DNA of 64,000 nucleotides from assembly GCF_006345805.1 (NCBI RefSeq), contig NC_043003.1, positions 112,096,001 through 112,160,000 on the forward strand, written 5' to 3'. Below the pieces are notes generated by a model, which did not search any database, was not told the origin of the DNA, and worked only from the letters and a program-made list of their open reading frames with translations. This DNA is from Octopus sinensis. Taxonomy: Eukaryota. This document shows positions 28,634 to 30,464 of this stretch, one piece after another. Positions within the stretch are counted from its first letter, which is position 1. Each line of letters starts with the position of its first letter. Position numbers and translations under genes: made by a program.

Positions 28634-28679
<46 letters not shown>

Positions 28680-28728
28680 GATCTAATGCGCTTGGCTTAG
28701 ATTTCCCTTGGCGGGCTGCCCATATCGG

Positions 28729-28795
28729 AGCAATCTCAAGATTAATCAGCCGAAATTGCTAAGATGATCTGGTTCTTGACTGATGACTGAGGGCT
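28729..28795 (+). ncRNA. Non-circularly permuted hammerhead ribozyme motif, copy 1
   Basis: AGCAAU-C|UCAAGA ... UCAGCC-GAAA-UUGCU ... UCUUGA-CUGAUGA-CUGAGGGCU: 6-bp stem III, 6-bp stem I, exact core. Confidence 0.75.
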
Positions 28796-29505
28796 TCGAA
28801 TGTCCCGTCCTGTGGTTCTTGTGTCGTCTCTGTGGTGTTTCATGTTCTTGTCCATGTCTGTAATTATTTTTACTGTTTACCTATATAATCGGCGGCTACG
28901 TATCCACAATTGTCCTTATACGATAAGTATATTTTTTCTCTAGCATTGATACGACTCTTAATCTGTCTCTTTCTCTCTCTCTCTCTCCTCCCTTATTCCC
29001 CTTCCTTTCTTCCCCCCCCCCCATCCGTCTTCCCCCCCCCTTCTACGTTTCTCTATCTCTCTCACCCCCAGCCCCCTCGATCTGTCTCTTTCTTCTCCTC
29101 CCTCGTCCACCTTCTCTCTCTTTTCATCTGTCCCTTTCTCCTGTCTTTTGTTCCCACGTGACCGCTAGCCGCTGTTGAGCGCTCTTTTCGTTCCAGCAGC
29201 CGCTTAAGCAACACGTATTTGTTCGTCTCCCTGCGGCCTTTAGGCACAACTTCACAAGCCAGCCCCATACTCAACTCAACTCGTCCTGTCGAAAGACCTT
29301 GTCCTACGTCCTGGTTTCGTTTTGTTTTTTTATTTTTACCGTTATTGTTTTTACGTTTTTGTATTCTTATTGGTGTCACGTATTCTGTATTTTTGTTCGT
29401 GTACTTCGTTCGTTTTCCGTCCTCGTGTTGTATACATTCGAAGCTTTCTTCCAGGGGATCTAATGCGCTTGGCTTAGATTTCCCTTGGCGGGCTGCCCAT
29501 ATCGG

Positions 29506-29572
29506 AGCAATCTCAAGATTAATCAGCCGAAATTGCTAAGATGATCTGGTTCTTGACTGATGACTGAGGGCT
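29506..29572 (+). ncRNA. Non-circularly permuted hammerhead ribozyme motif, copy 2
   Basis: identical to copy 1. Confidence 0.75.
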
Positions 29573-29742
29573 TCGAATGTCCCGTCCTGTGGTTCTTGTG
29601 TCGTCTCTGTGGTGTTTCATGTTCTTGTCCATGTCTGTAATTATTTTTACTGTTTACCTATATAATCGGCGGCTACGTAACCACAATTGTCCTTATATGA
29701 TAAGTATATTTTTTCTCTAGCATTGATACGACTCTTAATCTG

Positions 29743-29785
<43 letters not shown>

Positions 29786-30290
29786 CCTTATTCCCCTTCC
29801 TTTCTTTTCCCCCCCATCCGTCTTCCCCCCTTCTACGTTTCTCTATCTCTCTCACCTCCAGCCCCCTCGATCTGTCTCTTTCTTCTCCTCCCTCGTCCAC
29901 CTTCTCTCTCTTTTCATCTGTCCCTTTCTCCTGTCTTTTGTTCTCACGTGACCGCTAGCCGCTGTTGAGCGCTCTTTTCGTTCCAGCAGCCGCTTAAGCA
30001 ACACGTATTTGTTCGTCTCCCTGCGGCCTTTAGGCACAACTTCACAAGCCAGCCCCATACTCAACTCGTCCTGTCGAAAGACCCTTGTCCTACGTCCTGG
30101 TTTCGTTTTGTTTTTTTATTTTTACCGTTATTGTTTTTACGTTTTTGTATTCTTATTGGTGTCACGTATTCTGTATTTTTCTTCGTGTACTTCGTTCGTT
30201 TTCCGTCCTCGTGTTGTATACATTCGAAGCTTTCTTCCAGGGGATCTAATGCGCTTGGCTTAGATTTCCCTTGGCGGGCTGCCATATCGG

Positions 30291-30357
30291 AGCAATCTCA
30301 AGATTAATCAGCCGAAATTGCTAAGATGATCTGGTTCTTGACTGATGACTGAGGGCT
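30291..30357 (+). ncRNA. Non-circularly permuted hammerhead ribozyme motif, copy 3
   Basis: identical to copy 1. Confidence 0.75.
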
Positions 30358-30464
30358 TCGAATGTCCCGTCCTGTGGTTCTTGTGTCGTCTCTGTGGTGT
30401 TTCATGTTCTTGTCCATGTCTGTAATTATTTTTACTGTTTACCTATATATATATATATATATAC

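Follow-up and report, generated by a model that had tools for sequence, protein, structure and literature searches.

A tandem of non-coding units between two (TA)n tracts

The window analysed here is a stretch of 64,000 nt of the Octopus sinensis genome (contig NC_043003.1, positions 112,096,001 to 112,160,000). Between two (TA)n tracts it harbours three near-identical head-to-tail copies of a repeat, which start at 28678, 29455 and 30240, are spaced by 777 and 785 nt and together amount to 2.3 units (777 + 785 + about 205 nt). An earlier note on this DNA had described the order ribozyme-unit-ribozyme-unit-ribozyme, with near-identical units and no credible open reading frame (ORF), and both descriptions were borne out. 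Units 1 and 2 disagree at 4 of 558 unmasked sites and have microsatellites of different lengths, and the longest ORF starting with ATG encodes only 47 aa on the plus and 74 aa on the minus strand. The note had also placed both ends of the element in (TA)n. This holds for the tracts at 28609-28677 and about 30444-30463, but not for the end given as 30447; the element ends at 30443, where the TATATA run of the unit itself fuses with the flank. Global folding of monomer 1 revealed nothing unusual compared to shuffled sequences (z −0.38). The features of the locus are:

28609..28677, no strand: (TA)n target, 5′ side
28678..30443, plus strand: single 5′-truncated insertion, 2.3 units of a non-coding repeat of about 777 nt (69% pyrimidine, 46% GC)
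28714..28786, plus strand: predicted permuted hammerhead, copy 1, cut after 28735
28736..29512, plus strand: predicted monomer 1, cut to cut, 777 nt
28882..28887, plus strand: internal TATATA run at the fixed 3′ end of the family, a candidate priming site (from the sequence and the 3′ ends of copies)
29288..29297, plus strand (second copy 30073-30082): small GNRA-type hairpin, kept in diverged subfamilies (by eye)
29491..29563, plus strand: second copy of the predicted permuted hammerhead, with cleavage after 29512
29513..30297, plus strand: predicted monomer 2, 785 nt
30277..30348, plus strand: third copy of the predicted permuted hammerhead, with cleavage after 30297; a C is missing after its stem II strand
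30444..30463 (start approximate), no strand: (TA)n target, 3′ side, into which the fixed 3′ end of the family blends

Related subfamilies carry a TA run at the position equivalent to 28882-28887. By eye, a CACGTG box at 29155-29162 is also retained in diverged subfamilies. Possibly, this box is a promoter element and the GNRA-type hairpin a docking loop.

Wiring of the predicted ribozyme

We searched the window with a hammerhead descriptor, which predicted cleavage after AUC at 28735, 29512 and 30297, with 6 bp each in stems I and III and 5 bp in a stem II whose partner strand lies upstream. The earlier note had proposed the same sites, and with them monomers of 777 and 785 nt. In 40 Markov-1 control sequences of 64 kb, searched on both strands, the descriptor found no match with the upstream stem II and a single match when stem II was not demanded. 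The hallmarks of a hammerhead are all present, namely CUGANGA, GAAA, NUH and stems I to III with the pairs G10.1-C11.1 and A15.1-U16.1. In copy 1 the parts are located as follows:

28714-28718 with 28747-28751, plus strand: stem II, upstream strand
28729-28734 with 28755-28760, plus strand: stem III
28736-28741 with 28774-28779, plus strand: stem I
28752-28755 and 28780-28786, plus strand: core boxes GAAA and CUGAUGA
28720..28772, plus strand: distal helix predicted to extend stem III (28720-28726 with 28766-28772); in this family it has one mismatch
28760-28762 and 28763-28764, plus strand: kink-turn-like loop in stem III, with a 3-nt bulge followed by GA facing GA 28728-28729
28792..28795, plus strand: alternative strand for stem II (4 bp), separated from CUGAUGA by a 5-nt insertion; kept in the superfamily, absent from HERO-like copies

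The ribozyme was not detected by an Rfam scan at the gathering threshold, nor was it recovered by nested minimum free energy folding (z −0.42 and +0.38 versus shuffles), as is expected because the predicted ribozyme is a pseudoknot. A type I hammerhead with a downstream half was considered and rejected, as by eye no stem I partner is found 3′ of the core. Column counts show that stem III runs through the GA/GA loop, with its variable 3-nt bulge, into the distal helix. We take this loop and bulge to match the kink-turn consensus, and such a turn would bend the chain back toward stem I. The kink-turn-like loop is present in this family and in the octopus Naiad; it is not clear in the other three families with this wiring (see below).

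The blocks of the unit follow each other in the order cleavage site, GAAA, CUGAUGA (S, G, C), which is non-circular. This supports the rearranged ribozyme of the earlier note as far as block order is concerned; the main oddity, a stem II strand that precedes the cleavage block, is absent from that claim. This upstream strand (28714-28718) provides 5 bp opening with the G10.1-C11.1 pair. Downstream of CUGAUGA, at most 1 bp can form at insertions of 0 to 2 nt, and 4 bp form only after 5 nt. Most likely, stem II is formed with the upstream strand, which opens the chain between A9 and G10.1. The ribozyme would then read II5′ / III-NUH-I / II3′-GAAA-III / I-CUGANGA, with the chain leaving the core after A9. 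A wiring open between A9 and G10.1 is outside the six published permutations, and in the literature covered, mostly its open-access part, we found no description of such a hammerhead. It corresponds to type CSG opened between A9 and 10.1, a form excluded by the assumption of Eckert et al. 2023 that stem I-CUGANGA-stem II is uninterruptible (PMC10085705). Within the accessible part of that paper, type CSG is represented by two metagenomic sequences only, and the SGC RNAs stem from metatranscriptomes, none of them from the genome of a known organism (PMC10085705).

Alternatively, the ribozyme could be a hammerhead of the usual type SGC, with 5 nt inserted behind CUGAUGA and stem II formed through the downstream GGCU. 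Like the unit, type SGC has a complete core and the non-circular blocks S, G, C, and the stem III letters of SGC-3 are identical to those of the unit (PMC10085705). In the SGC RNAs that were tested, a single additional base separates CUGAUGA from stem II, whereas in the octopus unit no stem II starts within 2 nt; insertions known at that place, as far as the accessible text goes, are only 1-2 nt long (PMC10085705). The upstream strand, on the other hand, provides 5-6 bp. Among 33 variants of the superfamily both registers are kept, the upstream one in 26-31 of 33 per pair and the downstream one in 32-33 of 33, so the family's own copies alone do not decide the strand of stem II.

We therefore turn to unrelated sequences. 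Four unrelated families have the same wiring with other paired letters: those of locus L046 and of loci L080/L173, the Naiad tails and the HERO-like tails. Across these families, stems I, II (upstream, always with G-C first) and III keep their complementarity with changed letters. At L046 and L080 a downstream register of 4 pairs including G-U is also possible, and Naiad copies reach 5 downstream pairs only via several G-U pairs. Among 30 HERO-like copies, an upstream stem II of at least 5 bp is found in 24 and a downstream one of at least 3 bp in none. These pair counts leave out an automatic cross-family alignment, in which the Naiad row was misplaced. Taken together, a type-SGC fold is unlikely, and we proceed with stem II on the upstream strand.

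The families at L046 (about 1465-1552, plus strand) and at L080 (about 3245-3350, minus strand) and the right flank of L173 are two more non-coding families with this wiring, come upon by chance in flanking sequence. They have a pyrimidine-rich body and a short tail leading to (TA)n, and L173 shows one of them in tandem. In addition, a variant with a 41-nt deletion that stops right before the upstream strand is present in both units of L046 and also at L196; this variant has spread as a lineage.

Insertion ends and the copied template

Searching the Octopus sinensis genome (2.72 Gb) with the unit yielded 1292 candidates, of which 40 were scored; full-unit matches are 93-100% identical. The GAAA..CUGANGA half, with core position 7 left free, has 5387 exact matches in the genome over several subfamilies, compared to none for the reversed control. 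For the ends of insertions we used a sample unselected for length, consisting of every insertion, 17 in total, to which the 25 family-type rows of the 100 listed matches belong. They range from 145 to about 1860 nt, and 9 of the 17 contain more than one unit; the longest arrays of the family have 3.1 units. All 17 share the same 3′ end, about 146 nt past the cut, while their 5′ ends vary and lie within 10 nt of the cut in three cases. The window element is thus one insertion of a young non-coding family, and its 5′ end at 28678 is one among many truncation points.

As the 3′ end is fixed and the 5′ end variable, the redundancy in the window is not centred on the ribozyme, as had been proposed in the earlier note; that it appears to surround the ribozyme reflects where this copy happens to be truncated. 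The same note had called the repeat a retrozyme-like free element, and this stood. All 17 sampled insertions are free, and none is the terminal repeat of a coding element. They occur as free arrays, as its genome search was to decide, with a variable phase at the 5′ end only.

In the sample no ORF is attached to any of the 17 copies, which all end 5′ in TA-rich flank, and no ORF was found at the ends of a second set of 29 distinct insertions (one of them common to both sets). These results bear on the idea that the unit is a detached terminal repeat or 3′ UTR of an unfound coding element, or that the tandem is an assembly artefact. Only 40 of the 1292 candidates were scored, and frog retrozymes are homologous to Penelope terminal repeats (10.64898/2026.07.22.740005), which would fit a detached repeat; against an artefact, head-to-tail junctions recur at many loci with insertion-specific alleles and the two units of the window differ. 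We regard both variants of this idea as very improbable, and treat the family as one of free insertions.

Three of the 17 sampled insertions (L186, L199 and L029) and the window copy start within about 15 nt of unit position 1. This zone is a hairpin some 60 nt before the cut, which in this small sample is perhaps a second stop point. Head-to-head inverted arms were seen at L027 (2200-2970) and L022 (342-579), which we read either as twin priming or as artefacts of folding back. Penelope-like insertions can have inverted 5′ arms and an optional tail of 30-40 bp. In the set of 29 distinct insertions L027, possibly a fold-back, is the one inverted case, and the sample of 17 contains none; a second 3′ end was not seen in either set.

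Next to these samples, we counted the insertion starts beside (TA)n for the whole superfamily in 30-nt windows. On the minus strand, 686 starts fall into the window over the cut, 128 into the one 3′ of it and 58 into the one 5′ of it, whereby the three anchor windows may differ in conservation; the forward-strand counts overlap and were left out. Of 35 distinct loci listed, 3 start before the cut, 4 at the cut itself and 28 in the 14 nt that follow (by eye), and many of the 35 start at TAAT 8-10 nt past the cut. An enzyme running off at the 5′ end of a cut RNA would leave such a pattern, and the pile-up of 5′ ends at the predicted cut indirectly suggests cleavage in vivo. TA microhomology surely shapes the exact start points and may inflate the peak.

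One could argue that the motif no longer cuts and is a protein-binding relic, the pile-up being caused by TA microhomology or enzyme stalling. Most of the piled-up starts indeed lie 2-14 nt past the cut in AT-rich sequence, and Li et al. observed cleavage in 1 of 9 frog retrozymes tested, the other 8 showing none in vitro (10.64898/2026.07.22.740005). However, every core residue is kept across unrelated families while the stems covary, and the number of starts drops abruptly directly on the 5′ side of the cut (3 of 35). Moreover, the pairing partners would already have been copied by then, so that a structural stall would not be expected at the cut. A relic is thus distinctly unlikely, and we favour a motif that still cuts.

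To compare the units within insertions we used 31 loci, 29 of them picked as best full-unit matches. Divergence within an insertion is 0.45% (54 of 11983 sites), compared to 1.74% between insertions. Minor alleles agree across the units of one insertion in 101 cases versus 12, and these include alleles private to a single insertion. Because units share alleles and minor alleles agree within an insertion, each insertion likely stems from one monomer sequence that was read repeatedly, or from a parent array made in this way. Of 66 copies, 62 have an exact cut junction and 4 show differences away from the cut. A ligated circle would best explain the shared alleles together with the scar-free junctions. 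Rolling reverse transcription of a circular template, as suggested in the earlier note, is therefore favoured in so far as it means rolling copying of a single monomer; the exact junctions are compatible with uncut multimers or scar-free template jumps too.

Without a circle, long insertions would arise from uncut read-through multimers, or from jumps of the enzyme from the 5′ to the 3′ end of one linear monomer. Template jumps usually leave junction scars, and the junctions here are free of them. Multimers would require repeated monomer-to-multimer steps to bring private alleles and the 41-nt deletion into all units of an insertion. On the other hand, the pile-up of 5′ ends marks linear cut RNA as a likely common template, and in a purified Penelope system the main template was uncut RNA (PMC11167929). 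We consider copying without a circle possible but doubtful, and retain the circle as the working model. Contigs of four public runs guessed to be RNA and of four unlabelled ones cover parts of the unit; contigs as such cannot show starts, strand or circles.

Candidate helper enzymes and relation to known elements

The insertions show a Penelope-like pattern, with a fixed 3′ end, 5′ truncation, partial tandems and a bias for (TA)n. The unit lacks the ORF for a reverse transcriptase (RT) and GIY-YIG that characterises an autonomous Penelope-like element. Because of this insertion pattern and the TA preference, a Penelope-type helper is favoured, and we think it quite probable that such an enzyme mobilises the unit.

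Among the candidates, the Naiads share with the unit the (TA)n targets, 5′ truncation, partial tandems and tails with the same wiring; they differ in encoding endonuclease and RT and in the letters of the ribozyme (PMC8557442). Craig et al. 2021, in the accessible part of the text, reported no canonical hammerhead in Naiads (PMC8557442). In a subset of the 54 published consensus sequences, we found by eye the same wiring in the tails of the octopus, the coral and other entries of the ctenophore/cnidarian part, and type-CSG hammerheads in nematode and probably spider tails (PMC8557442). In this genome the ribozyme motif of the published Octopus Naiads has 290 matches, and this wiring is preceded by Naiad RT remnants in the same orientation. 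When 150 of 1018 candidates were scored, 137 Naiad matches were obtained, with a longest open frame of 320 aa and no intact or young Naiad among them. A search with a degenerate Naiad RT pattern had no matches, and in 20 longer Naiad-ribozyme loci no ORF was reached. The Naiad remnants found in this genome are old and broken.

A Neptune-like Penelope family (L163-L170) is young, with 16869 candidates and intact ORFs of 781 aa, and the 3′ ends found among 8 loci were TA-flanked in 3 of 3 cases. In 30 flanks and 8 longer loci no such ribozyme was found, except at the seed locus, where two elements merely abut. Outside this locus the family has no likeness to the unit, and none of 8 copies had partial tandems.

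The helper could also be a HERO-like LINE (L185, L200-L230), which carries the same wiring in its 3′ UTR and has a fixed 3′ end about 75 nt after the ribozyme. This family is abundant, with 19545 candidates, top copies of 92-96% identity and open frames of up to 1042 aa. However, (TA)3 contacts the 3′ end in 6 of 30 HERO-like copies versus 16 of 17 sampled insertions of the unit family, no likeness of the tails to the unit was seen by eye, and (TA)n is preferred by Naiad and Neptune-type elements. A HERO-like helper is therefore quite unlikely, which leaves the Penelope-type enzyme as the preferred helper.

From these data we propose a mechanism. A transcript spanning two ribozymes would cut itself at AUC, releasing monomers of about 777 nt, part of which would be ligated to circles. 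The helper endonuclease would nick (TA)n, and the TATATA run at 28882-28887 could pair with the nicked TA target for priming, so that reverse transcription would begin at the internal UAUAUA about 146 nt past the cut. On linear cut RNA the enzyme would run off at the cut, giving insertions of about 145 nt. On circular RNA it would cross the ligated junction and continue for up to three or more turns. In summary, the repeat would be a young retrozyme-type non-coding mobile element with a rewired predicted hammerhead in each unit, likely spread when a Penelope-type enzyme copies self-cut and often probably circular RNA into TA microsatellites. We assign this reading a probability of roughly two in three.

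The units are non-coding and tandem, each with a hammerhead, and the family is dispersed and mobile without an ORF of its own, as is typical for retrozymes. Animal non-LTR retrozymes likewise consist of short non-coding tandem units with a hammerhead in each, have dispersed copies and a similar size range and presumably depend on a Penelope helper (PMC7229834; 10.64898/2026.07.22.740005). Published consensus lengths range from 51 to 972 bp, so the unit of about 780 nt is not larger than known animal retrozymes, as the earlier note had supposed. Their hammerheads are type I, whereas that of the octopus unit has the non-circular order and is not type I. Circles have been shown for coral, mussel and axolotl; the octopus unit is known from genomic DNA copies. 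Compared to the published retrozymes, its insertion ends add a fixed start, a cleavage footprint and evidence for one template per insertion. The octopus unit works like an animal non-LTR retrozyme, yet falls outside the published definition (type I). The Poseidon element PAc of Anolis is similar in its fixed internal start of reverse transcription downstream of the hammerhead and in its AT-rich targets (PMC11167929). PAc has two start sites that are non-homologous to the target, whereas in the octopus family a single end dominates, located at a TA run that could pair with the target (PMC11167929).

A bolder reading, for which we see the odds as about even, is that a self-cleaving hammerhead with its core open between A9 and G10.1, and thus not among the six described permutations, functions in an animal genome. 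It would be common to Naiad, HERO and several protein-free passengers and would drive a retrozyme for which reverse transcription proceeds around an RNA circle, always from the same internal point. If true, there are more ways to build a hammerhead, and a linkage of the core taken as fixed can be open. A class of genomic ribozymes would then have escaped descriptor searches, among them probably the one that Naiads were reported to lack. Non-circular permutations, so far from metatranscriptomes whose hosts are unknown, would be placed in animal genomes in thousands of copies. Circle-mediated spread of retrozymes has so far been proposed without being demonstrated. In the DNA of this young family both outcomes are preserved, as short copies stop at the cut and long copies pass it with identical units, which makes the retrozyme mechanism directly testable.

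Elsewhere in the window, a broken LINE lies on the minus strand at 34683-36856 beside (TAT)n, with an RT (PF00078, E 2.9e-25) and a restriction-like endonuclease region. It is presumably R4/Dong-like, and the hammerhead descriptor found no permuted hammerhead near it. A 5S rRNA match is located at 1108-1227 (56.9 bits). Directly after the 3′ (TA)n of the tandem, an inverted repeat at 30460-30670 has arms of 103 nt that are 97% complementary and 5 nt apart, which we interpret as a fold-back or a two-armed insertion of another family.
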